This document shows positions 17,700 through 64,000 of a DNA stretch of 64,000 nt, one piece after another. Under the pieces are notes generated by a model that searched no databases, had not been told where the DNA came from, and was given only the letters and a program-made list of their open reading frames with translations. The position numbers were made by a program, and so were the translations under genes. The stretch comes from Euglena gracilis (taxonomy: Eukaryota): assembly GCA_039621445.1 (NCBI GenBank), contig CP154954.1, positions 11,650,716-11,714,715 on the forward strand, read 5' to 3'. Position 1 is the stretch's first letter, and every line of letters begins with the position of its first letter.

Positions 17700-20600
17700 T
17701 CCGGGGATCCCCGTGGGCGGGAACGGAACTGTGGAGAGAATGGGGTTTGGGACCGCAGGGAATGAGTGGCGCACGGCGGTTAACGGCGGGGGTCAGCTCT
17801 CTCTCGCCTCTCGCACTCTGATGGTGGCCGTTTGTGGGGCCGTGTTCTCTGCAGCCTGCTGCAATGGGATACACTCGCGCCGACGAGCTCCCTGTTGACA
17901 CGTTTTCCTGGGCAGTTGCGGGCACAGAGATTCACCATCCTTCATAGCTGGTTTGCTATCGCAGCCAACTGCATCCAGCATCAAATGAAACTGCCTTGCT
18001 GGAGGTTAACAGCTCCGACGTTTTGAATCTGAAATTCGGGGTTTTGGGGATAATTTTCAGGTAAAAAAATTCACTGCCATCTGGCGCGTTGCACCGTCAG
18101 CGCCGTAAACTCGATAATTCTTACCTCTGGATTTTCGCTCGGTCGGCCCAGGAGATTAGTATACTCTGGGGGGGGGGGTCTAACCTTGGGGGGGTTAAGC
18201 CCACAAACCGTGGCTGAAGGGGTCTGGGGAAGGATGGATATTGATATTGGGTTTAGGTGGGGTCCCGATAAATTTGGATAGATTGACACCCCGATATCCT
18301 CGATAAAAGTCGATAAAACTGATATGACCACTTTGTGCCCCGATATCCTAATTTTTCTGATTTGGAGAATCCTAAAAACGCCCCAAAAAAACAAACCAGC
18401 AGAACCCCCCCCCAATAAAGCCAACATTTCACAATATTTTTTCGGGACCTGATAAATTCAAGATCGTCAATAAGGCTGATGATATGGGCCGATATCCAAT
18501 ACCCATCCTTGGTCCGGGAGGCGAATAAGACAATCTGCGTCGCGGAGGCTGCAACTTCGAGGCACGAGTGGTGCCAGGCACGGTGGCCGGGGACAGTCAC
18601 GAGGGGAGGGTGGAGGGGGTCGGCAAGGGGTCGGTAATTACATCATGCGGCAGTCGAGGTTGTGACCTCGCGCAGGCCAAGCCCACCTCCCCCGGATGTC
18701 ATAAACCCATCAAACCCGTCAATCCAGACAGCTGACATTTTACCAAAAATAAATAAATAAAAATGACTAAAGACTCCCACACTTAAATTAGAAAAATATG
18801 CTGCATGAAATTTGGAGGAAAAAACCGAAAATAAAACGCCTGCAAAATAAATGCAAAAGACCTTCGTATTTATTCACATTTTTTTCTGGTGGGAAAACTA
18901 AGGTACAGAATGATCCTTTTCTAATGAAATGCACATGGGTAATGAACAGTGCATCAGATCATCGAACTCCGAAGTTATGAAAAGAATGGAATATGTACCA
19001 GGAAAATGCTGTCCACAAATATGAAAAGAATATGCCCAGAAAAATAGTGCAAGATATGTTGCAGAATTTTGAAGTTTTTGTCAATCATTGCCTCATGGAT
19101 AATGGGCTGAACTCCCTGGAGAAATGCGAGATATTCTTCGATCAAGAAGTCGGCCCTCAGGGCTTCTCATGCATTTCTATCAACCTCCGGTCAGACCATT
19201 GGGGGAGGGGGGGTCAGCCAGTGGCTTATCTCCAGGTGTCCCTGCCTCTCCTCCCCCAGGTCTGAAACAGAAGCCCAGACCCCCACGCCAACATGCACCC
19301 TCCCAAAGGTGCGCCCCTTCAAAACCCCTCCCCCCTCCTCCACTCTGGTCCAGTCGGGTGTTTTGGGCCGCCGGTGGCCGATGCCGTCAGGCTGGTCTGG
19401 TGGGGGGGGGCACACTGGGAAAACTTGTTCCAGGTCATTGCAAGGGATGGGGCCCAATTCAGGTCATGGTGACTGGTGTGCCGGATTTGCCGGATTTGCT
19501 GGAATTGCCGAATTTGCCAGATTTTGCTGGATTTTGCCGGATTTGTAGGAGATCAGGAATAATTTAGGCTCCATTGGGCAGAAAAAGAGGCCGGAAAACC
19601 TTTCGAACCAAACTGCCAGCCAAACCTCATCCCTAAATCGGCCCAATCTTCGGTTCGCCAATCCTAATTTTAACCCCTTTCCTAACAATAAGCACGCACC
19701 CTCCCAGAACCCAACAAAAGTCGACCAAAAATCTGGCAAATTCCCGGGGGCCGTGGAACCCCCCAAAAATGGGAAACACGTCGCGACTGCCCCCCCCCAC
19801 CCGGTAAATGACCAACGACCCCTCGGGTGTGGGGGGGGGGGTTGCCGCTCGGCATAAAACCTTCTTGAAACAACAGCACTTTTTCTCGAACGGGAAAACA
19901 CCAGAAAACTTCTTAAGATAAGCCACAATGGCACTCCCACCCTCCTGTTGTCCCACTAACCTGCTCCCCGGAACCGGATCAGACAATAAGGGGGGGGGGG
20001 ACAATAATGGATAATTGGACCAGACAAAAAAAACCTTCCGTCGGCAGGGACCCAGGGACAATAAGGGGGGGAGGAGTGGTAATTGACACAGCTGGGGGAC
20101 CTCACTGTGACAGTTTTCAAGCAAAAATATTTTCTTGAAAAATAGGAGAGGTCACCGCCAGAGGTCTTGTACACAAATGGCTTGTCTGTGGCATAACCGT
20201 TGGCGCGTTGGTGCTGCTGGCCAAAGGTCATCAGCAGGGTTCAATATTTAAGGTGGGGGGGTCAAAACCCCGCCTCCGGTCAAGGAAGGGGTGGGGACAG
20301 TCGGTCTAAGTGACTGTTTTTTGAGAAAAATTTTGCCTCCAAAAATCGTCCAAAAAAGCTATTTTGGCAAAAACTTGCCAAAATGAAAAAAAAAAACTAT
20401 CAGCACAAAAAATGTGAGATTTTTGGAGGCGGTCCCGGGTACCTAATCCAAATCCCCTTCCGGTTCACGGGGAACCCCCCCCCTCTAACCCATCCACCAT
20501 ATTATACCAAACCCTGGTCATCAGCTGAGACACCAGATCCACCACCGTGCCCTTCGCAAATAATTCTGCGCCAGAATGGGCACCGCCAGCATTTTGATAA

Positions 20601-20954
20601 GCATCAATCAAAATTGAGAAACATCTTGGGGTGATGCAGTTTAATAGAGAATTAAAAAACGCACTGGTGACAGAACAGGGGAAAAGATAAAAGGTGCGTG
20701 CATGCATGTGTGTGCATGCATACATACATGCACATGCACAAACATGTGCATATACATACACATACACAGACATATGCACATATACATATACATACATATA
20801 TCCTATATACATATACATATACATATACATGTGCAGAGACATATACATATACATACAGATACATATACAGACATATACATATACAGAGACATATACATAG
20901 ACATATACAGAGACATATACATAGACAGAGACATACAGACATATACATATACAG

Positions 20955-21031
<77 letters not shown>

Positions 21032-21090
21032 CAAACATATACATATACATATACTATACATATACATATACACATACATATACATATACA

Positions 21091-21374
21091 TGGCAGCCAT
21101 AATCTACATGCCCCCCCCGGGGGGGCCATGTAGATTATCCAGGGGGTCAAAATAGTTTTTTTTTTCGTTAATGATGGAATAGGGTTAGGTGCGCGACTTA
21201 GGGTTAGGGTTAGGCCTAACTTATAGACGGGTGTTCCGTACAAGTTAGACCTAACCCTAAGCCTAAGTCGCGCACCTAACCTTATCCCATCATTACCTCA
21301 AAAAAAAGGCCCCCCCCCTGGAAACACTCCATGCCCCCCCGGGGGGGGGGGGGGCATGTAGATTATGGCTGCCA
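21091..21374. mobile_element. TTAGGG-containing palindromic MITE
   Basis: Perfect TIR tggcagccataatctacatgcccccccc / ggggggggcatgtagattatggctgcca; internal ttagggttagggttagg; inserted in (TACATA)n. Confidence 0.85.
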
Positions 21375-21382
21375 TATACATG

Positions 21383-21449
<67 letters not shown>

Positions 21450-21589
21450 GCATGTGCATATGCATATACATATACATGTAAACCCCCAAACATAAAGCCC
21501 CAAATATATATGTATGTATATACACATATACATATACATATACAGATACAGAGACAGAGACAGAGACAGATATACATATACATATACAG

Positions 21590-21661
<72 letters not shown>

Positions 21662-21675
21662 CATATACATATACA

Positions 21676-21954
21676 TGGCAGCCCGAAACTACTGGCCCCC
21701 CCGGGGGGGCCCAGTAGTTAATCCGGGGGGTCAAAATAATTTTTTTGCGTTAATGATGGAATAGGGTTAGGTGCGCGACTTAGGCTTATGGTTAGGCCTA
21801 ACTTGTACACCGAACACCCGTCTATAAATTAGGCCTAACCCTAACCCTAAGTCGCGCACCTAACCCTATTCCATCATTAACGCAAAAAACTATTTTGACC
21901 CCCTGGATAATCTACATGGCCCCCCCCGGGGGGGCCAGTAGTTTCGGGCTGCCA
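21676..21954. mobile_element. TTAGGG-containing palindromic MITE
   Basis: Perfect TIR tggcagcccgaaactactggccccccc / gggggggccagtagtttcgggctgcca; internal cctaaccctaaccctaa; inserted in (TACATA)n. Confidence 0.85.
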
Positions 21955-22009
21955 TATACATATACATATACATCATATACATATACACATACATGTACAT
22001 ATACATATT

Positions 22010-22078
<69 letters not shown>

Positions 22079-22749
22079 CATATACATATACACATACATG
22101 TACATATACATATTCATAAACATATACATATGCATATGCACATAAATATGCATGTAAACTCCCAAATATAAAGCCCCCACCCAGGCTTTACATTTGGACG
22201 GAATTTCAAGACCCTCAGCGGGGGCTTAAAATGGGGGGGGGGGCTTCATATTCGGGGGAGGAAATCAAACTTTTGCGGGTGGCCTCTATGACCTTCAGCA
22301 GCTTTCAATTGTGGCCAAATACCAATTTTATGCCAAATTTTCGTTGTGTACTTCCTATTTTTCGCAGAAATGTGCAATTCTTCTCCAAAACGGAGCATTT
22401 CCGGTGAAAAAAAAGTTGTATCCACCCAAAATTTTCCACTTTTAGTGAAGAACACAAGTGTCTGGCTCCACGTCAGGGGGGAGGGGGAGCTTTATATTTG
22501 GGCGGCAAAACAAAACCCCCTTGGAGGGGGTTTATATTGTTGGGGGGCGGGGGCTTTACATTTGGGGGTTACATACGGCAATATGATCGCAACGGCAACA
22601 AAAGAATGAGGATATTATACGGTCTGATAATTGATGGGCAAAAGGAAAATCCACAGGCAAGGAATGGTCCAAATCAAACTAAATTCATAAAAACATGTCA
22701 TGTGGTGGTATGCTTTTGGGGAACGAAAACGAGTACCGGGAAAAAATGA

Positions 22750-23670
22750 AGGACGGGGCCGCATCCTGCCTGTGGGCCTCCAGGAGGCCCGGGGCGGGGT
22801 ACTTGGTGCGGAGGGCGGAGAGGTTGGCGAGGCAGAAGGGGTGGGTGTTGAACACCTTGGAGCAGGTCCCTGCCATGCCACTGCTGACAGCCGCAGCCAA
22901 AAACCCCCTGCCCGATATGATATATACAAGATATATGTATGTATGTAAATATCCATGTGCACATACATATTTATCATACATATGATATATTCCATTTATG
23001 CATATTCTATCATATATATCTCATATTGTACATATCATATCATATCATATCATATCATATCATATCATATCATATCATATCATATCATATCATATCATAT
23101 CATATCATATCATATCATATCATATCACACCATATCATATCACATCGTATCATATCATATGGTATCATATCATATCATGTCACATCATATCATATATATA
23201 ATATGTACAGAAAACACAAAAAGACAGAATTTTAGCCCCGGGGGAGACCAAAATCCTCAAGGAGGCCACACTCTCAAGGGAAAATTCGGTCCAAAATGCA
23301 AAAATTCTCAAGGTGGGTGAGTATCTCAGCAGAATTCTAAAATTGCCCCCCAAAAGACATAAAAAAAGCAAAAATAAACCCCCCGCAAACTTTGCCAAAT
23401 TTTTTTAAAAAAATAGGAAAGAAACAGGGAGGATGCGCTCCCCCCTGGGCACCCTAAAGGCTTGGTGGCTCATGCAATGAAGCACGGTCTCCACCTCCAC
23501 CTGGAGATCCTGAGGCCTGCAAAAACAAAAGTCAAGGTAGGAAAGCACAAAAGCAGAACTGTCACAACCCAAAAGGAAAACCCCCAAAGGCATCATTTTC
23601 ACAAAACCAGGCGGCCTTATAGAGGAGATAGAGGAGATAAACAGCACCCTTCAGAGTCACGCATACGCAA

Positions 23671-26342: not shown

Positions 26343-29300
26343 CTCTCCACCAAATCGTAGCATGTGATGACAGGGACAATGGTGATGCCCTGGGCCTTCG
26401 CCTGGCGGGCAACGGCGGCGGCGAGGCGGTAGGCGAACGCGGCGCCGAAGGCGTGGACGTACACCACGGCGTCCACCTTCAGAGGCACTTGCGGCACCAC
26501 GTACGCGTCGTACCTGGGGGAGGGAGGCAAACCCATTGCGGCACGCCGGCCGCGAACGGAACAGCTGCGGCACGGTGCGAGACGAGTGCGACGTGCTATC
26601 CGCGCGTTTCCGCAACTGACGAATGCCGGTCTGGATGTCCAGCGTCTTGTCGTTTGCGTGTCTTTAACAATTCACACCACACACCATTTGGGATTGTTCA
26701 TACTGTGATTGGGCTTGAACTTCCCCCTCCCAACAAATCATCGGTGGCACGCTTCTGTTCATCGGTCACATTTTGTTTTCCAGGCTGAGGATGGCGTGAA
26801 CAACTTGGCCACCGCCCCTTTTTTGTTTAATGAGTTATTCCTGTGTCAGGATGTTTGAAGGCAAATCCTTGTTATAAGTGGCACACATCATTGTGTGCAA
26901 TTTTGATGACTGTTGTGGGGAAACAAAACTTTTTTGGGTGGCCTCCAAATGCGTTCGCTACCTTATTCGAATTTGTTTGTGTACCATCCAAATTTCCCGA
27001 AATTGTCATTTTTCCCAACATGAAACACTTCTGCGAAAAATTGTATCATCCATCCAAAAAAAAAACACCAACATGTTTTGCCCTCCTCCCGCGGGGCTAA
27101 TAATGGGGGGGGTGGCTTGTTGTTTGGGGACAAAACCAGGAAATTGGGCGGCTAAATACTTATGTATCTACTATATATGTATGTATATATATATATATAT
27201 ATATCTATATCTATATCTATATCTATATCTATATCTATATCTATATGTATACTATGTATACTATGTATACTATATATGTATGTATATATACTTCCATGAA
27301 ATCAACTGTAAATTTGACCATTTATCACAGCCAGTGTGTCTTCGTCTTGCAATTACACATAAAATATCTACCGTGCCAGACTGTCATAGTTGAAATGCAC
27401 CAGCCAAATCATGGTTGAAATGCAGCAACTGGCCAGGCTCGGCAACGCCGAATGCACAGCCCGGCCAAACAGCAGCATGGCCGGCATCGGCCAGGCCCTT
27501 GGTGTCGAACAGGTTGAGCGGGGCGGCGCCCTCCTGGCAGAGCAGGTCGCACAGCGCGTACCGGACCGTCTTGGAGGCGTCCCCGGCGCCCTGGAGAAGG
27601 AAGTCCACGAGGCACCTGGCCGAGATTTGCCACGTCGAAGCGCCGAAACAGAGCGACGTGGGGTGTTGCCTGCCCCACACCCGGAGAACCCGGAGAAACC
27701 ATCACCTGAGAAGTCAGCCAGTGGCAACAAGCCGGGGTGCCAAAAAACTCCCGCAGAGCCCTGGTGGAGACCAGTTTTGTGACCCGGGGGGTGAGCACCT
27801 ATCCACCAAGCCCGGGAGCACAGAGAGGCCAGCCCGCCAAAAAAAATGGGGTCATCTGGAGGCGTTTCCCAAAAAAATGTTCGGTGATTTGTGTGAAACC
27901 CATACCTCGGGCCCCGGGGGGTCTAGCCCCAGATGCCCCTCCACCAATTGGCACCACCAAGAAAAGCCCCAAATAGCCCCGCTACGGAAAACCTCTTTCC
28001 AACCACATCTTACACTACCGACTAGTGTCAATTGTTTTCATTTGTCACCTGGACCCCCTGTCACGTTGGAAAGTCCAAACCAGGATTCTTTTTGACCCCC
28101 CCCCGGGAAGACCCGGGGGGGGGGACTGAGTTGGGGCACACAGTGTTGTATATTGTTTGGGAGGGCTTGATTCCTGGAAATAATCCCATACTGTTCAAAA
28201 TTTTCAAATTCTGCTCGCGAATTTTGGCCTATGCCGTAATGGACAGGAGTCATCATTTGTCTCAAAAAAGGCAGCACACGAGTATAATTGAACTGTTCAA
28301 TAATGGTTCAGATCTTTTTAAACTATGTACTCTGATCAGATTGCACTGTTGACTGAACAACACAGCTGTGGCTTGCGTGCACGCATGCGTGCATGCGTGC
28401 GCGCAGGTGTGTCTCAAGGCTGGACAAGGAGGGGCGCCACCTCGTCACATAATCGGGCAGAGCTGCCAGTGAGAGTCTGGTAAATACTATTGATGAGGCT
28501 GGACTTGCCATTGCCTTGCCGGCCGAACAGCACACAATTCACCTGCGGGGATGGTTGCCTTGGAGTGGTTTTGAACAGCTTGGCTGGGAAATTTCGACAG
28601 CAGTTGTTGTGGCTCCCTTGCCAGTACGGACAGTTCACTCAAATAAAAGGCCAATTGAAACAGAAAAAAAACAGGGAACAAAATGAGCACCCGTTCAGAA
28701 CGAAAGAGAGGGGTGGGGAAGCCACAAAGAGTCGCACAGCGCTGTGCACCTGTCTGGTGGAGCTTTTGGGGAAGGCCTGTTTCAAGCGATCGAGGCTGCG
28801 CTGCAGTCGATCCTTGTCCAGCTGGTGGGAGGGTCCCGGCCAGGCTGTTTTTTTACCAACCTCGGGGGGGGGGTCCGGAGTGCCTGTGAGTGCCTGCCCA
28901 GGCAGGCACCCCCCCCCCCCCGAGGTGGGGTCGGCACCTGACTAAACTACAGCCTGGCCCCGGCTCGGCTGGGCCGGCCATGCAACTCGGCCGGGCCCCC
29001 CCTGCAAAGGGAGGTCCGGACTGCCCCTCCCAGGCGTCTGGTCACCAACCCCAAGGTGGAGGGGTGGGGTGGGGTGGGGTGCCTGCTCATAACAGGCCCC
29101 CCTAACATAACAGGCCCCTCTAACATAACAGGCCCCTCTAACATAACACTAAGGCTTCTTTTCTGTTTATGGCCGGGGCTAACTTCTCTGGCGGCCCAGC
29201 TTGCTGTGTGGTGAGTGGCCAGGCCCCCCCTACCCCCCCCCGGGCAGGCACCCCCCCCCCCCCGGGGGGTTCAAAAGCCGGCCGATTCAGCCCATTGATC

Positions 29301-32300
29301 CTTGCCCATGGCCATTGCCGGCACTCAAGGGGATGCTACACATATCCACCTACCGCAAAACCCGACCCCATGTGTCTTCCGACCCCTCCCCCTGTTGGCC
29401 CATACCCCCCCTGGGGAAGGGAGGTGCGAACTTCCTGGCCCCAGCACAGTTTCAGAGAGCCCCGAGGGCTTCTGCCAGGAGTTTTTTAAGACCGGGGTGG
29501 AGCGGGTTCCGACCCCCCCCCACCCCCCACCCCCCCCCGGTGGGGGCCCCCCAGGGGGGCCAGGGACACTGAATTTTCCCCGAAAATGGCCAAAAAATCG
29601 CATAAATGCTAAAAATAGCACTGTTTTCAAAAAATTTCGGCGCCTTTGGTGCCGAAAAGTATAACCCACTCCCCCCTGGGGGGAATCCCCCCGGGGGGGG
29701 GGGGGGGGGGCTCGGCCGGACCCATCCACCCTCCCCCCTCTCCCCCCCAGGGGTCCACGACTAAAAAAAAACACCTGGCTTCTGCATGCCTGCAACAGCA
29801 GCATTTATCCAATTTTGAGATGGGGTCCTGTGGTCCTCACCAGTTGGTGAATCCCGGCCGTGCCAACGTCGATGCCTCGCTCAGGGGGGTCCCGCCCCGA
29901 CCTCCCGGGTGGCCACGCGCTCCGCGGGCGGCGCGGGGGCGGCCGCCCCGACCCGTGGGTACTCCACGGTGGTGTTCAGGTCTGTCGGCAGCGTACAGTC
30001 CAGGCCTGCAACAATACCGAAACACACTCAACACACAACACAACACAATACAACACAACACAACACAACACAACACAAACACGCAACACGCAACACACAC
30101 AACATATATTTTTGTTGGGGTGGCATACCTTTGTGTGTACACATGGTTACGTGTTATGTGTCCATGCACACACACACAACACATGAAAAAATACACAAAC
30201 ACACATATATTGGAGGGGGCATGCAATCGGGGCCACATCGAATGCAAAGAACGGGCACACTGTCAGTCAGAGTAAGCTCCTCGCCCGTGTGGCCCTCGCG
30301 CAAATCGACGGCGACCTGCCGGTAGGGGCGGCGGGGCGGTGGGGGGCTGACGTGCACCGGCACAAAGGTGGTCCGCTGCAGCGTGGCGCATGGCAGCGCT
30401 GCCAGAGGCAGGCCACCGGCACAGACAGCGCGAGGTCAGGAGTCCCATGCACGTGAAACTTGGAAACAAAAAACATCGACTGCTCTTTTTTCCAGCATGC
30501 CGAAAAGGGAGGGCAGGCAATGCAAAAAAAAACAACTTTGTGGACTGGGAGTAAAAAGTTAAAAATCAGGTGAGCTGTGTGAAGTACGCCATTCACCACC
30601 TCAGGATGAAGCCCAAAAGCCTGGTTCAAATTTTGATTAGATCTTCACAGCCGAAAGGAGACGAGAACACTCACTGGCGTCACTGGGCTTTATTCTAGCA
30701 CACTATTTCACAATAACCCACTCAAAATTCCACAAAACGGGATGAGGAGCCTGTAAATGTGCGTCCAGCATTCAGAGCACAAGTTCACTTGGCATGTATT
30801 CACTTCTATTCACTTGCTGCCCAGGGGGTTTTCCATCTGGTGACCCAGGGAGGCGGCACCTGGACTCATCCACCCTAAAACATTCAAAAAACATTATTGC
30901 CCCGATCACCAGCAAGCTGGACCAGGGGAGTGGGAATCCGACAACCCAAACGCACCCACTCACGCTCAAAACCCCGCCCACACAGAGACTGGGTCCGTGG
31001 CTTGGCGACCATGTGGAAGCATCTGTGGGCCGAGGGTCTGCCCTGCGCGTGGTCAGCGTCGCGCTGTCGATGGTGGACGGCAGGTCGGTGAGGGTGGCCG
31101 CGTCCGCGGTCTTCCGCGCCGGGACCTCGGCCGCCGGGGGATGGCGAGGAGGGGAGAATGGCACGCCCGGGGGCAGGCTGCCCGGCACCGTTTCGCACTG
31201 GGGAACGTCGAGCTGACCTGAGGAGGGCGGCGAGGGGCAAATGCAGGAGTTTTGACTGTCCCCGGGTGACTGCTTGTTTGCTGTGTGGTATTTCTGGTAA
31301 AAGAGCATGAGAGCTCCAATGCTCCCAGTAAGTATTCCTTAACAAAATGTTGACTTTCCGTGAACTGCAGAATGCGCAAACTGCCTTTCTACTGTGTCTT
31401 GTCCCAATAATAGTCTTTGACCCAAACTGCCTTTATAGGTAGTTTCTCACGCCACTTGCAAAGAGAACAGGAGGAACATGTGGCACAGATGATATTGAAC
31501 TCGAAAAGTATGCCATCCTCTCATCCATGATACCAAGTGCTTCTCAGAACGCTCCTTGTCAGGGTTTGACAAAAACATTGTGGGGAAGGGTCTGGACTCC
31601 CTAATGCAGGGGTGGTCAGCCACATATAAAGCAATTTTTCGCCCAGGTGCACAACTTTTCAGTTTGAAAGAAATTGCCAAGAAATCAGTCAAAAAAACCA
31701 ACCTTGGGGCACAGAAAACTATCCACAAGAAGCAATGGAAGAAACTTCAAAATTGTGATGGAGCACAGGAAAGAGTGGTCTAGGGTCTGGCGGAGCCCCA
31801 ACCTGAACCCCAATCAGACACCTTACTCATGGAACCCTTGACCATACCGTTGCATAGCGACCTCCCAGGGGGAGGGGGGGTCACTTTCCACTCTGAAAAA
31901 ACCAGTCAATCCTTTTCCCAAAAACCAGTCAGTCACTTTACCCCCCCCCCCCGGGGGGATCGGCCATTCTTGAATGATGAGGAGGAGGCAATGAGCATTT
32001 GCCAAAAAGTCTCAAAAAATCCAAAAAAAATCCGGCGCCTTCAGCGCCAGGCCAGTCACTTTTTCTTTTTCGAGCCTACCCCACCCCCCCGGGGGGGGGG
32101 GGGTTCTTGGCCAGAAAACCAGTCAGTCACTCTGAAAAAAACCAGTCAGTCACCCCCCTTAGTTGCACGAAGGCTTCTTGTCTGTTTATGGCCGGCGCTA
32201 ACTTGGCTTCTGGCCCAGTTTGCTGTGTGGTGAGTGGCCAGGGACCCCTTACACCAGCACTCTTTTGTTGCTCCGCCTGGCCGGGTGAGTAACTCTGGTG

Positions 32301-41100: not shown

Positions 41101-41198
41101 AACGGTTCGGCAACACAGGGGATGTTGTTATTTTGGGGCCCTGGAACAGTTGAGCAGCAAAAGGAATTCGCTTCCGAAACGGTTCGGCAACACAGACA
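38156..41198. repeat. 77-bp tandem satellite, ~39.5 copies, with higher-order structure
   Basis: Monomer cagcaaaaggaattcgcttccaaaacggttcggca(a/g)cacaggggattttgttattttggggccctgggacagttg(a/t)g; ORF track repeats with a 77-nt period. Confidence 0.97.
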
Positions 41199-41215
41199 CT
41201 TATGGTTGACATTTA

Positions 41216-41500
41216 GGCTCCCATTCTGCGGTAACCTGGCTGCTTTCCCGTGACACCCTGACTTCGAATCTGCAGCATCCCGGCTCCTTCCCGCGACATC
41301 CCGGCTCCTTTCCGCAACACCCTGGCTCCTTTCCGCGTCATCCTTGCTCCTACTTCACGACACCTTGGCTCCAACCCGCAACACCCTGGCTCCCTCCCTC
41401 GACATCCTGGCTCCCCGTCAGTGGCATGACGGCCTCTGCTCTGCAACATCCCGGCACCCACCCCGCGACACCCTGGCTCCCACCCCGCGACACCTTCATC
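41216..41500. repeat. Degenerate 21-bp minisatellite (ggctccttcccgcgacatccc)
   Basis: Roughly a dozen degenerate units; a related unit precedes the satellite at ~38120-38142. Confidence 0.8.
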
Positions 41501-42439
41501 CCACAACGCCCCCATCATCAGCATCACATGGCCGCTTCACAAAATGTCGAACAATCCCAGTTCTGGGGCGTCTATTTTTACACCAATTTGCCAAAATTTG
41601 CCAAATATAGCAAATCTTGGCAATTACTCGCCTTTTTTTGGGCTTCCTCCAAATATGTGCTGGGAAATTACTTTCAACTTAGAAATTTTTGCATGTTTCT
41701 GTTTTGATTATTTGCTTTCCTTTTTTTGGAATTTTTACCCAAGGAATTCCAATATTTCCAGAATCAGCATGACCCCCAAAAAACACGCTTTTGGATCATT
41801 TGGTTTTTTTTAAAAAAAATAGTAGTTAACGGCTCAGAATTTACACCTAAATTCCTTAAATGACCAAGATATGTGTGATTTCTCCAATTCCCCTTCAGCA
41901 GAAGTGGATTAATACCTGAAACCGCATTTTCCGCAATTTCCGCAATTTCCGCATTTTTTCCAAAGGCCTCCGACACAAACCCCCCCCCCCTTGCACTGGC
42001 ACGGGGAGTTCAAAGCTGGTTGAATTGTCTGGTCTGAGCTGTGGCTGCCAGCCCGCAATTGGTTATGGAGGACACACCCTGGACTTGGACCAAAGGTTTT
42101 TCGCCTATTTTGCGCATGGTCTGCCGAAATTCTCCACATCCAAACTTGACCTTTCCTGTCCCCGCGACACCCCCTCGCTCTCAGGCCCTGGTTCATTGCA
42201 TTTTCTCAAAGTGTTCGGCCCTGAGGCTCAGCTATAGTGTGCTATAGTGCTATAGTGTCCATTGGCGGGTTGTTGATCTTGAAGGGTACAGCAGTCCTCT
42301 TGCCCTTTTCAGAACGAGAAAAATCATTTGTGATTAGTTCCATTCTCCTCTCTTCTGGATTGAGAGCTTCTTTAGAGTAATGTGATGGTTTAAACCTCAG
42401 GGTTGCCTGGGGTTGCTGGCATCTGCTCCACCCTAACAG

Positions 42440-48780
<6,341 letters not shown>

Positions 48781-48802
48781 CCCCCAGGCCATAGGCAGGC
48801 CA

Positions 48803-48996
<194 letters not shown>

Positions 48997-49057
48997 CGCG
49001 CACGTGCAAGAGAATCAAATTAGACCTGTGGGTCAAATCGATACGCTTGTCGACCAC

Positions 49058-53286: not shown

Positions 53287-53748
53287 CAGGGGATTTCTTA
53301 AGGACCCCCAGGGGGGTAGGGGGGGGAGGGGAGGGTAGGGGGGGGGGAGGGGGGGGGGTCCGGGGCTGGAGGGGGACTGGGCTGGGCTGGGTCGGTGAAA
53401 AACAAAATCTTCTAAAAAATTTGTCAATTTCGACATTTTGGTGGATGGAGCTAGATCAAGGCTGGGGGGCTGTGATGGAGCAAGCTGTGGTGAGGGGGGA
53501 AAAAATGCACGGATAGGTGACCTGGGCAGTCCAGTTGGCTGGCCAGCCTGCGACCGGCTGGCTCTGCCTTCGGCCGGCTGGCCCGGCCTCCGGCCGGGCT
53601 GGACCCGACTTTACTTCACTCGACCCCCCCCCCCGGGGGGGGCTCCCAGCCTGAATTTGGGCCGCTGGCTGGATTTGAGCTGCTGGCTGGCTGGACCCCC
53701 CCCCGGGGGGGGGAGGGTAGGGTACCCTCCGGCTTAAGAAATCCTCTG
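53287..53748. mobile_element. hAT-like MITE, family C
   Basis: TIR caggggatttcttaag / cttaagaaatcctctg (15/16); TSD aaagtgag/aatgtgag (7/8). Confidence 0.85.
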
Positions 53749-54000
53749 AATGTGAGGTGTGCAATTTCCAGTTGTCTGAACGTGGGGAAACTTGCCTGTA
53801 CAAATGCCCCCAAAAAAAGGAAAGGCAGGATATGCAAAAAAATTGAAAAAAATATGCGCGTTTGCGAAAATTTTCATAATGCAAAAAGAATGCAAACAAT
53901 GCAACTTGGATATCCCCCCCTGTGGCAAGGCACGCAAAGACATACGGCAGAAAGTTGTTGCGGTGAGAGGCGGCACGAGAGCACGCGGCAAACAGTGCGG

Positions 54001-56168
54001 TCACAGCGGCCCCAGGGCCTCCTCCCGGACGCTGCGGACCCGCCGCCAGTACGGCGTGTCCAGCGTCAGGAACCGCCGCAGCGTGGCCGGGGGCACGGCG
54101 TGGGACCGGGTCGGGGGGCCCGGCCCCCGCTGCGCGGCGACGGCCCGCACCTCGAAGCCCCGCCAGTGCCGGCCGCGGAAGGTGGCGTCGGGGACGCGGC
54201 CTGGGGGCACTGGTGGGCGGGAGGCTGATCCGTTGCGGGGCCTCCCCCGGAAGAAAGCAGGTTCCGGCCTGGGGGGTCATTCCTGGGGCTGGGCCAAATG
54301 GGCGCCGGCCCAAATTGATGGGCCGGCAATGCAGGTGACAACAAGGGGGGGGAAGCACCCGCCCCACCCTCAAAAAAAACACAATCCAAAATACAGTTTA
54401 TTCGGGAACCATTTTTTGCACCGTTTTTTTAATCCTTTTTGTGGATTTTTTTTTCAATCTTTTGGATTAGGGGTTGATAGTTTGATATTTTGAGACTGCA
54501 ATCTATTCAAAATTACCTGAACGGTAGAGCATTCACTCTTTTTTCGGACGTCATTTGCTTAGGACGTTATTTTTTTTATCTTTTCCAGACTTTATTCCTC
54601 CACTTACCAATTCTGTTTCCCCGTTTCCCCAGTTTTCAGTGCTTTGATGACACCTGTGAAATCGACATCCTTGGTCAGGTGCAACATATCCCAAGGTACG
54701 TGGCAATGCCCACAGTTTACAATCGCGGATAAAGGGCTCGTTCATCACACCAAGGTCTCTGTCAAGCAGCGCTTGCCGTTTGTTGACCTCCAGTGGAAAG
54801 ACGGTTCAAAACTTGAAACCGGCAATGTTCTCATGGCGAGCAGGCTGAATTTGATCAACCCCCTGGAAGGGGTGCCCTAAGGGGGGGATGCCTGCTGGTT
54901 GTAGGCCAAAAAGTAAGTCCCACCCAAATCATATACCCCCCCCCCGAAATGATATGAATAATATAATAATATGAGTCCGGACAAAAAAGGCGGGAAAAAT
55001 GAAGGGGAAAATGAAGGAAAATTTAGACTTTGAAAAAAACAACAATGGGGATTCACGGAAAATGGTGGTAATTTTCCCACTTGCTTCAAAAATTTTCGGC
55101 AGAAAAAGCAGCTCAGAATTCCAAAAAAAAAAATGATGTCGAAATGTTTTTCTGGGTTTTTTCTTTTTGTGGTTTTCCAATAAAAAATTCAACCCCTAAA
55201 ATAAACCATATGTCACATCCCTGTCCTTCTGTGTGTGAAAGTCAACCACCAGTGAACGTGGTTCCTCCAAAAGGGCTAAAAAAATTACGGGGAAAAATGA
55301 TGGGAAAAACTGAGTGGTTTTCCATCATTTTTGTTTTCCGTCATTTTGTCGAGACTGTGCCCCCAATACCGCCCCCTGGCCCGGGACTTCGGCTGCCCAA
55401 AAATAATATACCCCCCTGCCACACCCAAGAAAGGAAATCCAGCATGGCATAAGCTTGAATTTCTTTCCAAAAAAAACAGCATATTTTGGTTAAAAAATAT
55501 CTGGTACCAAAAGGGCAGTAAAATAAAATGAAAAATGCGCAAAAGTCAGAAATTACGTAAAAATGTGCTTTTTGGATGGTCTTTTGGAGTTTGAAAAATT
55601 GGGTTGTGCCTGCGGTGCCGAAGTGCCTTGGTCAAGTGCCCAGGCACTTTGGCCATGTGCCCCCCTGGGGGGTCGGATCTAGGTGCCTTGGAGTGCCTGC
55701 CCAGGTAGCCACCCCCCCCCCCCCGGGGTGGAGTCGGCACCGCTGGATATTATCGCGTAAAATTCAGCCTGATAGTGGTCAGCAAGCCTCGCGAACGATG
55801 AAACAAACATCGAACAAACAACTGAACCCTTTTTGAAGAATCAGACCGGAAATGAAATCTTAGACATAAAAGCCATCTCGGCCTATTGAGGGGGGGTACG
55901 CACAAGGTTGACACTCAATGGCGCTTATTGCAAACGCAGCCTGGTCCCACTGCTGGGGGTACTTCCCGACAAACCAGTTGCCACTGGCGACGCGCGGGAA
56001 GCCGAAGACCTCTTTCGGGTGGAAAATGGCGGCGAGGTACGATGCGTACAGCTGGGAGGCCCACCAGCTGAAGTGGTCCATCCCATCGTAGTACGGCGCA
56101 GCCGGGCTGGGCAAAGGCTTGGGTGTGGGGGTCGTCCAAACATATGTGGCTCAATGAGCGCGTAAATG

Positions 56169-56249
<81 letters not shown>

Positions 56250-59200
56250 GTGTGTGTGTGTGTGTGCGTCTGTCTGTCTGTGGTTGTGTGTGTGTTTGTG
56301 TGTGTGCGTGTGTCTTGGGAGTAAATGCGAATTTGAGGAACCCGCAAATACAGGGTAAGACATCAGCATGGGTGGTTGGCACCACACACCACCAACCACC
56401 ACCAGCCACCCAGCCACCAACCCATCCCACCCACGCGCCCGCGCACACACGTGCGCGCACGTATGGACACACGCTTGCACCCCCACACCACACACCACAC
56501 ACGCGCGCGCACACACAACCCCTGAGAAATGCCCAGCACGAACAATACTAGGGAGTTGAAAAAGACGTCGTGATGGAATGCGTTCGCATAGGCGTGGAAG
56601 GCGGTGATTTGGAGCACCTCCGACTCATTGTGTGGGGGAAGGAATGGGTTTGGAGCATGGCACCAGCCTGGAGGTTCTGACACTGCAAAATCCTCCCATC
56701 CCTGTCAAGAACCAATGGGACAGACGGGAAGGTTATGTGGGTTCTCGAAAAAAATTACAACAAATAATACAACAAGGAAAAAAGAAAGCACATACTTATG
56801 CATATTCGGTTCTGACAATTAGGAAAACTGTCAAATTTGAATGCAGGGGACAACAGACTTTCATTTAGTGCGCCGTGGCGAAGTCTGCCGTGGCACAAAA
56901 AAAATTTCCGCAGCGCACGCGACGCACAAACAAATTTTTGCCACGGCACACCCGCGGTGCACCTGAAACGCTGCCGCGGCGCACCAACAACGCACCCGCG
57001 GCGCACCAGCGACGTTCCTGCAGCGCACCAATGACGTTCTCGCCGCACATTGTATGCACGCGGTGCTGCCGCGGCGCACGCGGCACACAAAAGAAATCTT
57101 CCGCGGCGCACGCGGTCACAAAATTTCCGGTGCCGCGGCGCACACGGCGCAGAAGAAAAAATTTTCCGCGGCGCACTGAATGAAAGTCTGGGCAACAACC
57201 TTTCTGAAAAAGTGAAAATGTTATATTAAACAGTGTATAACAACAATGACTTGAAATCCTTCCCAGCAGCCTAAGAAAAAAAAAACACCACCAAACAAAA
57301 CAACAAATAACTGGAAACCCACCACAAACCTAAAATGGACCAATAATTGCATGCACCTTGAAATTTGTGTGAAAAAATGGTTCATTGCACGAATATCAAG
57401 GAATGCCACAGGCAGAGAATTTCTTAAGGACCCCCCGGGGGATCCAGCCTCGGCTGGCAAAAAGGCTGCTGGCTGGAAACGAGCTGCTTGGCTGGACCCC
57501 CCCAGAGTGATTGGGGGGAGGGGCGGGTCTGGGGCTGGAGGGGGCTGGGCTGGGCTGGGCTGGGCTGGACCGATGAAAAACAAAATTTTCTAAAAGATTT
57601 TTGCCTACTCAATGCTAGAACCAGGACTGGAGGAACAGCCTACTTACTGCCACACATTCTTATGCACATGTGATGAGGAAAAAAAATGCAGGGATAGGTG
57701 TGCTGGTAGCCTAGTTGGCTGGCCCGGCCTGCGGCCGGCTGGCCCGGCCTCCGGCCGGGCTGGACCCGACTTTACTTCACTCGACCCCCCCCGGGGGGGG
57801 GGCTCCCAGCCCGAATTCGGGCTGCTGGCTGGATTTGAGCTGCTGGCTGGCTGGACCCCCCCGGAGGGGGGGGGGGTGCCCTCCGGCTTAAGAAATTCCC
57901 TGCCACAGGAATGCCACAGGAATGTCACAAGAATGTCACAGGAAGGTCACACGTGACCTACCCGACCCTCCCAGCAGCGGCCATGGTGGTACTTGGGCTG
58001 CGGCTCCTGGAACCCCAATGGCGGGCCGATAGCAGGCATGTGCCTGAAGGTGCTAAAAGGCGCTTCAAAATGTTCAATGCAAGAAGAAACACCCCTGAGG
58101 CGGCAAGGCGCAAGGCGTCGTCGGGGGTGTGGGGCGTTGAAAACAGAAAAGAACGCGTCAAATGTGAAATTGAGGGGAAATATCCCTGCATCGCACCAGT
58201 CAGCCAGCACTTGGCTACAAAAGAATGTTTGAGAAATGATGTGGAGTTGAGGCAAAGGACACAGGAAAGCATAGGCCTTTTTATTCAAATTTACATATTC
58301 AAAATTATGTTTATGTTTTTGTTTACATTGACATTTTATATGTACATTTATGTTTTTATGCATATTTTATGTGTATTTGTATTTATATTTTCTTTATATT
58401 CTATATTTATATTTATATTTATATTTATATTTATATTTATATTCATATTTATATTTATATTTATTTGTATATTTATTTTTATATTTATATTTATATTTAT
58501 ATTTACATTTACATTTATATATTATATTTATATTTATACTCATATTTATATTTATATTTGTATTTGTATTATATATTAATATACGGCAGGTCCAAACTAT
58601 ATGCCCCCCGGGGTCCATATAATTGGATCAGGGGGGTCGGGGAAAATTTTTGGATTATTGGTGGAATGGGTTTTCGTTTAGGAGTCAGGTGTAATTTAAG
58701 GCCGAACTTATAGACTAGTGTTAGGTGTACAAGTTAGGCCTAAAGTTAGGACAAAATCCTAACTTTATCCCTATTCCATCAATAACGCAAAAAAAAATTG
58801 GACCCTCCTGATCCAACTACATGCCCCCCCCCCCTCCGGAGGGCCATGTAGTTGGGACCTGCCATTTATATATGTATTCAATTCAATTCAATTTTTCATT
58901 CAAATATTCAAATTTATATTTATTCGAATTTTATATTTTTGTTGCTTTTAAATGTGAGTGTGTGACAACCACAGCACATGCCTGGGTGCCAGTGCAGCAA
59001 CAGTCGCTCGAAATCAGAGGTTCCAGAAATGGAAACATCGTCGTCGATGAAAACAACAGAGCCGCCCCACCATAAAGAAAGCTGATCTGTGAGCAAGTTG
59101 TGGATGCCAACTTGGTCTCCAACCAACAGTCATGATTCCTAAAACACTTAGATGAAAGTGCAGCAAACCCTCCTTGTGTCACACAGCAAAGATTCCGGGC

Positions 59201-60063
59201 AGCGATACATTCATTTGTTTTCGGGGAGGGGGGATTCATTAATTTCCTTTCCCACGTTCGATGAGAGGACATATTTTGGCGGAATCCGGTGGTTCTGAGA
59301 ACTTCAATCAGGAAGCGGGACGGCTGCGGTAATACTCGTACCGCCGCGGCAGCTTCACCGCCATCTGCCACAGGACGTTGCGCCCTGACGTCCACGTTGT
59401 GTTCGGCCGCACGGTGGCGGGCGTGCAACGCCGGTAAAACGGCACCACGATGTGTGGCGCAAGCTTTCTGACAGGCAAGGAAGTGGGAGGTTGGAAAGGA
59501 CTGGTATTGACATTTGTGCCCAAAAAGAGGTTGGCAGATGGAAACTTTGGAGTGGGAGAATGGATGCCCTGATGCCTATCATGCAAAATTGTCAGCAGCA
59601 GGAGGTCGTGGAAAGGGGTTACGCTCTGTTTTTGCCTGAGGCAACTTCAACCTTGGTTGAAAGCAGGTGGGGATATTCAGGAACCTCAAAAAAAGTTGTG
59701 TAGCAATGTAGCTTCATCGTGGGATAACCAGAATGAGCTTTTCTTTAAACTGATGCCAAAACCCTTGTAGGGGGGGGGGGTCAAGCCGGGACTCATCTCA
59801 TCCCCCATCCCCAATTGGCAAATCACTGGTTAATAATTCTCACGCCAGTCACGCCGGTGCACGCAGAAGGAGACCGGGCTGCCCCACGTGAGGCAGAGCG
59901 CGTCTCCGTTGTCGGAGTACCGCAACTGCTCCGCGAAGGTCCGGCCCTGGACAAGGTAGAGGAAGCGTGGGGGCTCGTCGTCCTTTGGCGGGTTGGCAGC
60001 AGAGGACGGTGGCCCCCCAACCACGGGTGGTCGGCCAGCGGCCGCCACCAAAGTTACCCACCC
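54001..60063 (-). CDS. DxD-motif (GT-A fold-like) putative glycosyltransferase, multi-exon
   Basis: Exons 60063-~59860, ~59413-59329, 59054-58988, 58027-57962, 56667-56544 and 56097-~55930 splice to FLYLVQGR...DALCLTWGS...RPNTTWTSGRNVLW...YEYYVFIDDDV...FERLLLHWRPAIGVP...ANAFHHDVFFNSLVLPYYDGMDHFSWWASQLY. Probable last exon ~54210-54001 ending in TGA; start codon not located. Confidence 0.7.
56098..56543 (-). other. Nonconventional intron (GT start, no AG end)
   Basis: GTT-CGTGCTGGGCA ... TGCCCAGCCCG-GCTGC: 10 of 11 pairs in the +4/-6 register; restores NSLV-L-PYY. Confidence 0.75.
56854..57190. mobile_element. hAT-like MITE with subterminal ccgcggcgca repeats
   Basis: 25-bp TIR cagactttcatttagtgcgccgtgg / ccgcggcgcactgaatgaaagtctg (23/25); TSD ggggacaa/ggcaacaa (6/8). 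Confidence 0.8.
57413..57902. mobile_element. hAT-like MITE, family C
   Basis: TIR cagagaatttcttaag / cttaagaaattccctg; flanking direct repeat ccacagg (7 bp visible); right arm nearly identical to the 53287 copy. Confidence 0.85.
58028..58987 (-). other. Nonconventional intron
   Basis: ACC-CAGGCATGTGC ... GCACATGCCTG-CTATC: perfect 11-bp stem (58033-58043 vs 58974-58984); removal gives LLHW-R-PAIGVP. Confidence 0.85.
58584..58864. mobile_element. Diverged member of the TTAGGG-type MITE family in an AT microsatellite
   Basis: cggcaggtccaaactatatg...catgtagttgggacctgcca; core tagtgttaggtgtacaagttaggcctaa...ccctattccatc shared with the other copies. Confidence 0.75.
59055..59328 (-). other. 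Nonconventional intron lacking CAG/CTG at the usual positions
   Basis: CGC-AGCCGTCCC ... GGGGCGGCT-CTGTT: 9-bp stem in the +4/-6 register; restores YEYY-VFIDDD. Confidence 0.75.
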
Positions 60064-61189
60064 CTGGAGCACTGGGGGGGGGGGGGGCACTTTTGGGGGC
60101 CGCTTTTCGGGTCCGAAAAAAAAAACGGGACTTTCACGAACACCGTTTTTTTTTGCGCAAATGCACAAAGGAACAGGCCAACTGCGTGTTGAGTGTGAGT
60201 TTGGCTGCTTGAGTTTGACGTGGTGCACGCGTCACACCAAAACGCGTACAGCAGGGGCAGACGAAGAAATCCCCTCCTCCGGAGCGTCACCAACCTTTAA
60301 AAGCTGTTGGTCGGGCAATTGGTCTTTCAAAAAAAGGGAAGCCTAAAGACAGATAGGAATTCGGAGCTGTTCAAGAACGTCACGGAGTTGTGCACTTAAA
60401 AGCGTCACGGAGTCATGCAGTTGTGCACTTAAAAAACGAAAAGGGCATACCCGATGCATCCTGACACACTTCTTTACACTTTTTTGGTTAACTCGCTCCT
60501 TTGCAGACGCTTCTTTTCCATGCTCAATCTTCTCTAAGAAGCCCCCACTGTGAAGGCCTCAGGGTGCACTCGCGTAATTGACCATTCAAGTGGTTATAGC
60601 GGACTGCCGCCTCCGGCAGCGGGAAGTGCGCTTCTATTTGGACTCCACCTGGGCGATTTTGTTGATTTCCTTGAGAAATCCCTTCAATTGGGGGGTGCGC
60701 TTGTATCAGGCCGCCGCCTTTGGTGGCTGGGGGACCTTGTGCTTGTCGCGGCCCCGCGCTTTTGTGGGGGATTATTCCTATTGCTGTGTGGTATGGTGCC
60801 GGGCATCCTTTCCACAAACATTTCTGTCTGCCCCGAGTGGTCCTAGGCGCACCCGTGCTTCTATTGGGGGGGGGGGGGGCAGGAGAGATAATATCACAAT
60901 TACACCACATGTTCCGGCTCCGAGCAGGCTGGCACAGGAGGCTTTAAAGTGGATCCTTTTGCAAATGTGCAAAGCAACATCGCTTTTCCTCCCATGCGGG
61001 TACAACGGGGTCTCAACGTAATTGGGGTGATGCGGCCAAGGTCAACTGGTGGAAGCCCTCCGGTGCTCGATTTTTCTTTTTTTTCAGAATTCCCTGACTG
61101 TCTGATTTAATTGCAAAACACACTCCCTCCACCTCCGGAAAGTGTGACGGGTGAGCTTCTGGCAGTGACCAAACAAGGGCCCGACCCGC

Positions 61190-62700
61190 CTCCCCTCGCA
61201 GGCCGCCCCCTGGCCCCAGTTGTTGCACTTGCGTTCGCTCTGGCCCCCAACGATGGCCAGGGGCATTGAGGGGCGGTACTGCCGGACGAAGCCCGGGGCC
61301 AGGGCGGGGGCTTTGAGGGTGGGCGAAAGGAAATCCAAATGAACACCAGGCCACGCCGCCAGGCTTTTGCTTAAGGACCCCGGGGGGGGGGGGGTACTGG
61401 CCTGCCAATCGGCTAGACACTGGAAAAAATGGACCAGCTAGCCCCCCCCCCCCCCGGGGGGGGGGGGTGGGTCCGGGGGTCCCCCCCCATCTGGAAAAAA
61501 ATTTTCCTCCGGCGCTGCGCGCCGAGGTGGAAATGAGGTTTTCAATAGGTTTTTGGCTGATTTTGTTCCAGAAATTCCCAAAATGGCCAAAAACGGGCTT
61601 TTTTGGCCATTTTTGGGGGTCCCAAAAAATTTCCGTGACGCCGCGGCCGAGATTGGAGATATGACACAGGTTTGATCCCTGGGCTGCAGATTGGTGTCTT
61701 TTCCCACAGCACAAAAAGCAAATTTTTGAGGTCAGGAGCCTGACAGGAATGGTTGTAATTCCGTTGCACTTCAGATAATTCAATATTCAACAAAAAAAAG
61801 TGTGACAACCTCAAAAAGAAAGACAGGTCCCTTAGAGGACAGGTTAGAGAATGCGACGAGGGGCAGAGGGGGCAGAGGAGGACAATTTCCTGGGAGGTTG
61901 GATTTTTCGATGGCCGAACAGCAAGACTGTCACCAACAGCACAGCAAGATCCATTCCCAATGTCGTGCTGCGTCGCATTCGTGGTGCGTTGCACCTCCCT
62001 GCGCACCATCGTGTCCTCGAATGCCACAATGACGGCCGCGTTGAGGAGCAGGTTGAAGGAGATGATGGTCACAGGAGGGCGAGACCACCAACACACCAAA
62101 GCTCCATTTGCCTTCGTCTTTCCCACCATCAGAATACTCCACAACGTTGCATTGCCGGGATGGAAGACAGCGTTGCTAATGGCAGCCCCCTCCGGCTGGT
62201 TGACCAATTTGAGGTTTTGCGGGCAACACTGGGCTACATGATGGAATTGAGGGGAAAAGCAAAAATCCAACTTTTGAAGGCTAAACGAGCACGAAGGCAA
62301 TCAAACGGAGTTGCAGTGTTTGGTGGTGGATGGTTTTTTCTCTTTGAAGATTCATTGGATCGGCACCCAACCGCACACCCCTGGGGGTGGAGGGACTCAA
62401 TATTGGTGGTGGGGGTCATTTTGGACCCAAATGATACGACACACAACAAAACTTTGGCACTTCGTTGCGAAGGTGGGAGGGGAGCCCAAAAATGTCTGGA
62501 AATACTCACATCCCCGAATGGGGATTGGTCGGTATGCTTGGAAAGAGCCCGAGAGCCTGCGTTGAACCACCCTCGGGGCCTCCCCTGGCACAATGCCCAG
62601 GTCCAGAGCTTTGCTGCGGAACGTCACCAAGTTCAGGGACCGGTAGAGCAGGTTGAAGCAGGCGGTGAGGTGGCCCCATGCCGCTGTTTGCCCAATGGGG
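61190..62700 (-). CDS. Minus-strand exon cluster, possibly a membrane protein; unknown
   Basis: GC3-rich blocks ~62690-62570 (WGHLTACFNLLYRSLNLVTFRSKALDLGIV), ~62065-61995 (IISFNLLLNAAVIVAFEDTMVRRE|GT), ~61330-61190; junctions unresolved. Confidence 0.4.
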
Positions 62701-64000
62701 AGATGGTGCTTGGACAAGGGGTCCGGATGACTTTTAAAATTTGCGTGCAAATTCTGGATTTGAGTGCTAATCCAGGTATTTGTGTGCAAATCTAGAAATT
62801 TGCACGCGCTTATGCACAAATTTACGCGCGAAATATGCACAAACTTACTCGTTTTTGAGGATGCACACACAACAAATATCACAAAGTCGCAAAATTTTCT
62901 GCAGCATTTAGCTCGTCGAGATTTAGTGACTTCAAAATTTGTACTTGCTTTATCAGGCAAGAGAAAATGCTTCCTGGAAGATGACCTTAAAAAGATGGGT
63001 GCCTAGACAAGGTTGGTGATTAATCAGAAAGGGGGATGTTGCAGGTGATTCAAAAAATACACATTTCTCCTATTTTAGCTTCCACTTTTGCACTTCCAGG
63101 CAACCCGGACGGGAGTTGTGGGCACCTCCCTGACAACCCAAGCAGCGCCATGGGTATGCGACCCCATTGTAGTCGATGCGGCTCTCGGGGGGGTTTGGCC
63201 ACTCCGTGGAGAGGAACACGAGGGCGGGCATTCGCAGAAGGGGGGAGGGGGGTCACTTTCCACTCTGAAAAAACCAGTCAGTCACTTTTTCCGAAAAACC
63301 CAGTCAGTCACTTTACCCCCCCCCCCCGGGGGGGATCGGCCACTCTTCAGGAGGTAATGAAATTTTCCCAAAAAATGTCAAAAAATCCAAAAAAAATTTC
63401 CGGCGCCTTCGGCGCCAGGCCAGCCACTTTTCCATTTTCGGGCCTACCCCACCCCGGGGGGGGGGGGGGTTCTTGGCCAGAAAACCAGTCAGTCACCCCC
63501 CCGGGGGTGGGGTAGGACAGGTGATAAGCAATGGTATGGGGAGGACACACACAAAGACGGCAGAGCAGCCCCAAATGCACACCCACCAGGAAAATGCCAC
63601 CTGACAGGCGGGCCAGAACCGCAGGCCTTGCAGTTTCTCTTGCATGGCCCCCACAGGGCAGTCCAAAAGATTATCACCCCTGGCAGCTACGCGTTGTCAG
63701 GGAAAGTGGTCTCTGACAAATTCCAAGCACAGGAGTAAAGGAGCTTATGAGCTTGGGGGGGGGGGGGTAGATTGCCGTGCTGGATTCCCCCTCCTTGTTT
63801 GGCTCGGGTTGAATCGACAACGGGGGCCAACTGTGGGGGGACACACATGGTACAGGGTCAAGCCAGGACACCCACCCGTCGTGTCCAACAAACGCTTAGG
63901 TGACAAAATTTGTGGTCTGAACAAGGGGTATACATTGTGAGTGGGTGAGGGTGGAGGTAAGGAGTGGGGAGGATAAACACTGAGACATGAGGTTCTAATT

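Follow-up and report, generated by a model that had tools for sequence, protein, structure and literature searches.

The window analysed here is a stretch of 64,000 nucleotides from Euglena gracilis, repeat-rich eukaryotic DNA that carries, on its minus strand, the host gene of an intron at 59055-59328. This gene is an orthologue of P0001, a 754-aa transcript-derived protein (eukprot) with 86% identity to the 56-aa exon translation used as query. A tblastn search with P0001 locates at least 12 orthologue exons between 63225 and 54004 of the minus strand. No Pfam family was found for P0001, nor for the two exons flanking 59055-59328, and the neighbours of P0001 in the protein atlas are all sub-threshold and glycosyltransferase-like, which is a weak lead. 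The segment 59055-59328 is likely a euglenid nonconventional intron of a nuclear protein-coding gene, in which the position of a terminal helix, and not a literal CAG/CTG, fixes the two cuts.

The RNA comparison covered 53900-64000 and drew on four studies, using X21, a run of raw RNA-seq reads, and X2, X4, and X6, three runs of contigs that are presumed to be RNA. The joint 59054>59329 skips 274 nt and has a slide of 0, with no letters fitting both sides, so that its placement is unambiguous. Nine raw X21 reads, which begin at eight different places, carry it, as do the main contigs of X2, X4, and X6 (one contig each). An original prediction, made for this DNA from its letters, had called for confirmation of the junction 59329/59054 in complementary DNA, and the junction is recovered exactly. 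The contigs carrying the spliced joint have depths of 32.6, 104.2, and 21.1, equal to those at the adjacent CAG/CTG junctions in the same contigs. The reading frame continues across the joint from ...YEYY into VFIDDD..., where P0001 reads YEYYVFLDDD. A 151-nt X4 contig with a depth of 2.6 lies inside the intron (59117-59267), so that intron RNA, whether unspliced or excised, or else DNA must be present to some extent. The read comparison lists no back-joint for 59055-59328, although it was not designed to find one.

It is extremely unlikely that this joint arose by template switching of the reverse transcriptase across the hairpin, or that it reflects a genomic allele free of the insert. Hairpins can favour template switching, and the runs compared at 59055-59328 are all RNA runs, which leaves some room for an insert-free allele. 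However, template switching usually needs a direct repeat, and the joint has none (zero letters shared by both sides). In addition, the same joint recurs in four runs from four studies, the frame is kept, the orthologous protein from another species is continuous at this point, and the ten introns of the host gene behave alike.

On the coding strand the intron opens with CGC AGC and closes with GCT CTGTT. It has neither a GT or GC start nor an AG end, lacks a pyrimidine tract ahead of the 3' cut, and its CG..TT borders match no U2- or U12-type spliceosomal borders (GT/GC-AG, AT-AC). The exon downstream starts with a purine, the G at 59054. The two ends of the intron are joined by a helix in which AGC at +4..+6 faces GCT at -8..-6, with A-U, G-C, and C-G as the first pairs. 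Pairing then extends to 12 consecutive pairs (+4..+15 with -6..-17), nine of them Watson-Crick and three G-U, while +3/-5 is an unpaired C:C. This helix is found in the minimum free energy and centroid folds alike, and among 20,000 pseudo-introns drawn at random from the window, a run of at least 10 pairs at the +4/-6 register has a frequency of 0.00085. Since the usual first pairs are C-G, A-U, and G-C, it is probably the position of the long helix that fixes the cuts here. The literal CAG and CTG are found instead at +3..+5 and -5..-3, and cutting by them would excise 278 nt (4 nt extra) and lose the frame, as had been predicted; the RNA joint shows that the actual cuts differ from those. 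An exact-seed repeat search left the terminal helix, with its three G-U pairs, unlisted. A search of the whole window against Rfam gave 0 matches, and a palindrome at 58813-58855 has no second copy in the window.

Table 1. Features of the host gene, of the intron 59055-59328, and of related introns and elements in the window
Feature	Position	Strand	Description	Evidence
Host gene, part in window	54004..63219	-	At least 12 exons; orthologue of 754-aa P0001	RNA joints, tblastn
Nonconventional intron	59055..59328	-	274 nt; coding-strand ends CG..TT, no GT-AG	RNA joint 59054>59329
Upstream exon	59329..59405	-	Ends ...YEYY; own 5' boundary slides by up to 4 nt	RNA joints, X6 contig piece, tblastn to P0001
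Downstream exon	58988..59054	-	Starts VFIDDD, first base G (purine); 3' boundary slides 1 nt	RNA joints, tblastn to P0001
5' arm of terminal helix	59314..59325	-	Intron +4..+15, starts AGC; 12 consecutive pairs on the +4/-6 diagonal	
3' arm of terminal helix	59060..59071	-	Intron -17..-6, ends GCT	
5' spacer, 3 nt	59326..59328	-	+1..+3, cut to helix; agrees with the fixed 3-nt spacer of PMC12501133	
3' spacer, 5 nt	59055..59059	-	-5..-1, helix to cut; agrees with the 5-6-nt spacer of PMC12501133	
Second nonconventional intron cited in the original prediction	56098..56543	-	CGT/CCG, begins GT; 56097-56542 fits the mRNA equally	RNA joint 56096>56543
Nonconventional intron near 29877-29910	about 29897..28987	-	911 nt; CGG/CCG, +4/-6 register	P0002
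CAG...CTG element	1933-2374		8-bp flanking repeat (7-8/8)	
CAG...CTG element	14318-14566		8-bp flanking repeat (7-8/8)	
CAG...CTG element	28841-28956		8-bp flanking repeat (7-8/8)	
CAG...CTG element	29476-29777		8-bp flanking repeat (7-8/8)	
CAG...CTG element	34380-34508		8-bp flanking repeat (7-8/8)	
CAG...CTG element	53287-53748		8-bp flanking repeat (7-8/8)	
CAT...ATG element	51588-51919		332 bp; 12/12 terminal pairs; perfect 8-bp flanking repeat; lies within a second-gene intron	

Nonconventional introns are well documented in euglenids (Milanowski et al. 2014, 2016; Gao et al. 2024 BMC Genomics; Nomura et al. 2025), and 59055-59328 resembles them in the lack of GT-AG ends, the +4/-6 helix, the spacers of 3 and 5 nt, the purine that opens the downstream exon, and the presence of GT-AG introns in the same genome. 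It lies in a euglenid nuclear gene, is removed precisely without GT/C-AG ends, pairs +4..+6 with -6..-8, and is followed by a purine, which are among the defining features of this class. It departs from the known set in its AGC/GCT trimers, which are neither CAG/CTG nor the accepted CGG/CCG, CGG/CTG, or CTG/CAG, in the absence of a direct repeat at the junctions, and in having C as its first base, a position usually held by a purine (51 of 55 introns; PMC4770533). The pairing of +4,+5 with -7,-6 was reported as the most conserved feature of these introns (Milanowski et al. 2014, PMC3935182), and the later conclusion, in 2016, was that complementarity and not sequence matters at +4..+6/-8..-6 (PMC4770533). 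In that study CAG/CTG was present in 33 of 55 introns, and its authors asked whether it is a signal or the fingerprint of a source element. For E. gracilis, CCAGG at +3..+7 together with CCTG at -9..-6 has been reported as the consensus (PMC11170887).

A more explicit code, N3-CDG/CH'G-N5-6|R, has been described by Nomura et al. 2025 (PMC12501133) for E. agilis, where nonconventional introns make up 71.8% of all introns. The code fits 61.2% of these nonconventional introns, leaving 38.8% without it. A 5' spacer of exactly 3 nt is required, the 3' spacer may have 5 or 6 nt, the base after the 3' cut is preferably a purine, a stem past the motif is needed, and synthetic introns designed by these rules are spliced. 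The intron 59055-59328 has spacers of 3 and 5 nt, a G after the cut, and nine further pairs; CDG at +4..+6 and CHG at -8..-6 are absent. It thus keeps the published spacing and, on either side, departs from the CDG/CH'G motif at two positions out of three, which puts it in the class without the published signature, whose share of 38.8% comes from E. agilis.

The register of the helix was compared over 17 nonconventional introns, of which ten belong to the host gene (defined by RNA) and seven to a second gene (defined by protein alignment). All ten RNA-defined introns of the host gene are nonconventional, none of them being placeable as GT-AG. The second gene, also on the minus strand, runs from 52109 to 20160 and matches P0002 (eukprot 'EG_transcript_5013', 680 aa) in 22 exact-word blocks, with high-scoring segment pairs up to 100% identical; the 'EG_' of the label is taken to stand for Euglena gracilis. 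For its introns, all junctions that reproduce P0002 exactly were enumerated; 16 of the 21 exon pairs were resolved and five were dropped for gaps or mismatches. The 16 resolved introns comprise nine GT-AG and seven nonconventional ones.

To rank registers, pairs were counted over ten diagonal positions in the best mRNA-compatible placement of each intron, a procedure that replaced a noisy listing of exact-run helices. Over the ten RNA-defined introns, (+4,-6) has the top rank among 80 registers, pairing at 87 of 100 positions; the mean for random pseudo-introns is 3.7 to 5.4 of 10 pairs, varying with the number of placements allowed. Across all 17 introns, pairing is at chance level at +1..+3 (0.47, 0.47, 0.35), is nearly complete at +4..+7 (1.00, 1.00, 0.88, 0.94), and is back at the baseline near +16. 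Exon-exon pairing beyond the cuts, which would form an outer helix, is at chance level over the 17 introns, and a purine opens the downstream exon in every one of them. The claim that the stem always runs from +4 to -6 is borne out in all 17 introns of the two genes, but the placement of the slidable introns is partly circular. Three placements are free of this bias, namely 59055-59328 and 59995-61215 (RNA, slide 0) and 22771..20567 (a single protein-compatible junction), and all three fit the register. The segment 56098-56543, cited in the original prediction as an intron with CGT/CCG, has its RNA joint, with a slide of 1, so that this placement is one of two compatible ones; it pairs at 9 of 10 diagonal positions, and +6/-8 is a T:C mismatch.

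Pairing at +4..+7 in the nine GT-AG introns is 0.22-0.56, without a jump and without a +4/-6 helix. Such introns, together with the full spliceosome of Euglena, lend some credit to removal of 59055-59328 by the spliceosome, in its usual or a variant form, with end-pairing merely joining non-canonical sites as has been proposed for some tunicate introns, and spliceosome independence is said in PMC11170887 to still need experimental verification. This explanation is nonetheless very unlikely, given that 59055-59328 has none of the spliceosomal signals at either end. Nonconventional introns have moreover been reported to give full-length circles and to be removed after conventional ones (PMC11282704, PMC6221363), and the strict 3-nt distance to the helix (PMC12501133) suits a structure-measuring enzyme better.

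The trimers at +4..+6/-8..-6 are CAG/CTG in six of the 17 introns, and CAG/TTG, CGG/CCG, CGT/CCG, CGT/ATG, CCG/CGG, CAA/GTG, AGC/GCT, ATG/CAT, CAT/ATG, GTG/CAC, and AGG/CCT in one each. Position +4 is a C in 13 of the 17, and this, together with the varied trimers, makes the sequence biased but not fixed. The bias is one of several points that weigh against helix position as what sets the cuts. The whole-intron folding energy of 59055-59328 is ordinary (z = -0.31), so that only its terminal helix is informative; the placement of 14 of the 17 introns was chosen among mRNA- or protein-compatible ones to fit the diagonal best; and for the seven from the second gene the evidence is protein alignment and not reads. 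To our knowledge, no enzyme is known for the removal of nonconventional introns. Published mutants likewise show a role of sequence beside that of pairing, since splicing is lost on single substitutions in CAG or CTG, and CTG-CAG alone is functional among the complementary changes made at the middle position (Nomura et al. 2025, PMC12501133).

These mutants, like the frequent C at +4, would be expected from a code that is mainly one of sequence, N3-CDG...CH'G-N5-6 before a purine. The intron 59055-59328 would then be a poorly spliced exception, in keeping with the X4 contig inside it, or would use cryptic features such as the shifted CAG/CTG. This alternative is rather unlikely, since the main contigs of three runs carry the spliced joint at the depth of the neighbouring CAG/CTG junctions, and the cuts do not fall at the sites that the shifted CAG and CTG would set. 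The strict code, furthermore, fits only three of the ten introns of the host gene and is absent from over a third of the nonconventional introns of E. agilis. The claim that register and "not CAG/CTG sequence" is the signal is thus upheld insofar as an AGC/GCT intron is spliced in register, and overstated insofar as CAG/CTG point mutants fail.

Fixation of the cuts by the position of the helix would work as follows. After transcription, the imperfect terminal inverted repeats (TIRs) would pair and bring the two junctions together. A machinery that is probably not the spliceosome would then cut on the 5' side at 3 nt upstream of the first base pair, and on the 3' side at 5 nt downstream of that pair, before a purine, and the exons would be joined precisely. 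The position of the helix would be what is read, and the enzymes would be an endonuclease and a ligase. The structure-measuring nuclease and ligase of the original prediction agree with the fixed, ruler-like spacers (PMC12501133), but the idea is not new. A structure-recognising endonuclease and a ligase, acting without the spliceosome in a manner like that of tRNA splicing, were called "tempting" in 2014 (PMC3935182), and either RNase III with a ligase or a tRNA-type pathway has been proposed in PMC12621601. The spacer and stem mutants that the prediction called for were published in 2025, and these also revealed constraints on sequence; the main text of that article mentions no compensatory changes at +4/-6 and +6/-8 (PMC12501133). 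In its general form, the claim of a fixed register, fixed spacers, and a structure-reading enzyme adds nothing to the literature of 2014-2025. The addition is small, and consists of a natural, non-slidable intron that keeps the published spacing and breaks the CDG/CH'G motif. This intron argues that the motif requirement, derived from one tested backbone, is not absolute, and clean natural test cases of this kind are useful in the search for the enzyme that removes most Euglena introns.

Introns of the tRNA type (bulge-helix-bulge), both archaeal and eukaryotic, are similar in that structure sets the cuts at fixed distances from a helix and that the excised introns can be circular, and their splicing has been proposed as a model for nonconventional introns (PMC3935182, PMC12621601). 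Excised nonconventional introns are likewise circular with full-length ends (PMC11282704, PMC12621601). Unlike bulge-helix-bulge introns, 59055-59328 does not have two 3-nt bulges around a 4-bp helix but flanks of 3 and 5 nt, and the chance-level exon-exon pairing outside the cuts of nonconventional introns is a further difference. RNase III, an enzyme of the ruler type that leaves a 2-nt 3' overhang, offers another parallel, as the pairing profile suggests that nonconventional cuts lie 2 nt apart on the +4/-6 diagonal and would leave a 3' overhang. However, RNase III normally cuts inside a duplex, and the 3 nt beside the nonconventional cuts are paired at chance only.

The spacers of 3 and 5 nt add up to 8, the length of the target-site duplication (TSD) of the local CAG...CTG and CAT...ATG elements, and excision at these points would therefore take out the element and exactly one copy of the duplication. 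Ends of the CAG type with an 8-bp duplication are a signature of the hAT superfamily of transposable elements. In the window, six of 123 CAG...CTG inverted-repeat candidates have flanks matching at seven or more of eight positions, against 0-2 with displaced flanks, and one of these elements, 28841-28956, is spliced out as an intron of the second gene. A scan for CAT...ATG elements was swamped by CATATA-type microsatellites and left a single clean one, 51588-51919, which is probably the MITE (miniature inverted-repeat transposable element) that the original prediction had called family D.

For the nonconventional introns, the last five exon and first three intron bases were compared with the last five intron and first three bases of the next exon. 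These 8-mers match on average at 3.65 of 8 positions, compared with 2.06-2.59 at 12 displaced offsets, and two introns have matches of 8/8 and 7/8. No such repeat flanks 59055-59328, where one of eight positions matches, and a BLAST search of the 64-kb window with this intron gave 0 non-self hits. Nonconventional introns share with MITEs and introner-like introns their TIRs and, in the case of other introns of the window, direct repeats of 8 nt that span the junctions. The intron 59055-59328 differs in having no other copy in the window and flanks that match at one position of eight, and introners, for their part, depend on the spliceosome for removal. A MITE origin of nonconventional introns was proposed in PMC3935182, and TIRs, TSD-like repeats, and full-length circles have been described for them (PMC11282704).

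It is conceivable, although doubtful, that the machinery carries out a "precise excision" at the RNA level, removing the element with one copy of its 8-bp duplication and finding it by the start of the terminal helix, whatever the bases there. The cuts, 2 nt apart, would then leave a 3' overhang like that produced by an RNase III-type enzyme. If this were true, 59055-59328, with its AGC/GCT and its decayed flanks, would be an old insertion that is still spliced because only the start of the helix is read. The agreement between the sum of the spacers and the length of the duplication is a lead and not a result. It was not found stated in those parts of the literature on nonconventional introns that were consulted, and a limited search found none linking these introns to hAT elements.

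That CAT...ATG elements should be spliceable, as the original prediction held, has gained indirect support from the RNA-confirmed intron 62672-63155, which has CAT/ATG in one of its four compatible placements. The spliced introns 62672-63155, 56652-57987, and 22869-23489, all on the minus strand, have CCATGGC-GCTGC-like ends, with CAT/ATG, ATG/CAT, and CGT/ATG at +4..+6/-8..-6, and ends of the CAT/ATG type are therefore spliced in nature.

The third example of the original prediction, an intron at 29877-29910 with CGG/CTG, does not stand, since P0002, a near-identical transcript-derived protein that is most likely of the same species, reads through it (residues ...ATREVG lie inside). This stretch consists of exon and the start of an intron, and the next exon is a 30-nt micro-exon (10 residues) at 28984-28955. 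Elsewhere in the second gene, a GT-AG intron of 14.3 kb (34734-49025, minus strand) spans a strongly skewed low-complexity block (44-48 kb) and long inverted repeats at 44670-46305.

In the host gene, all four runs continue from 63219 into one common unlike sequence at 63219-63220, which places the next upstream exon outside the compared stretch or the window. Run X21 has C>T in eight of 16 reads at 62037 and G>A in eight of 13 at 63190, both in exons, where the contig runs carry the base of the window; these differences are most likely allelic or strain variation. The intronic repeats 57607-57943, 61314-61650, and 62999-63672 have summed contig depths of hundreds to thousands, compared with about 20-100 for exons, a sign that dispersed repeats are very abundant in transcripts. 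Within intronic repeats, skips of 31 and 33 nt at 57649-57681 and 61381-61415 are each found in single contigs of two runs, and may be variants between repeat copies rather than splicing.

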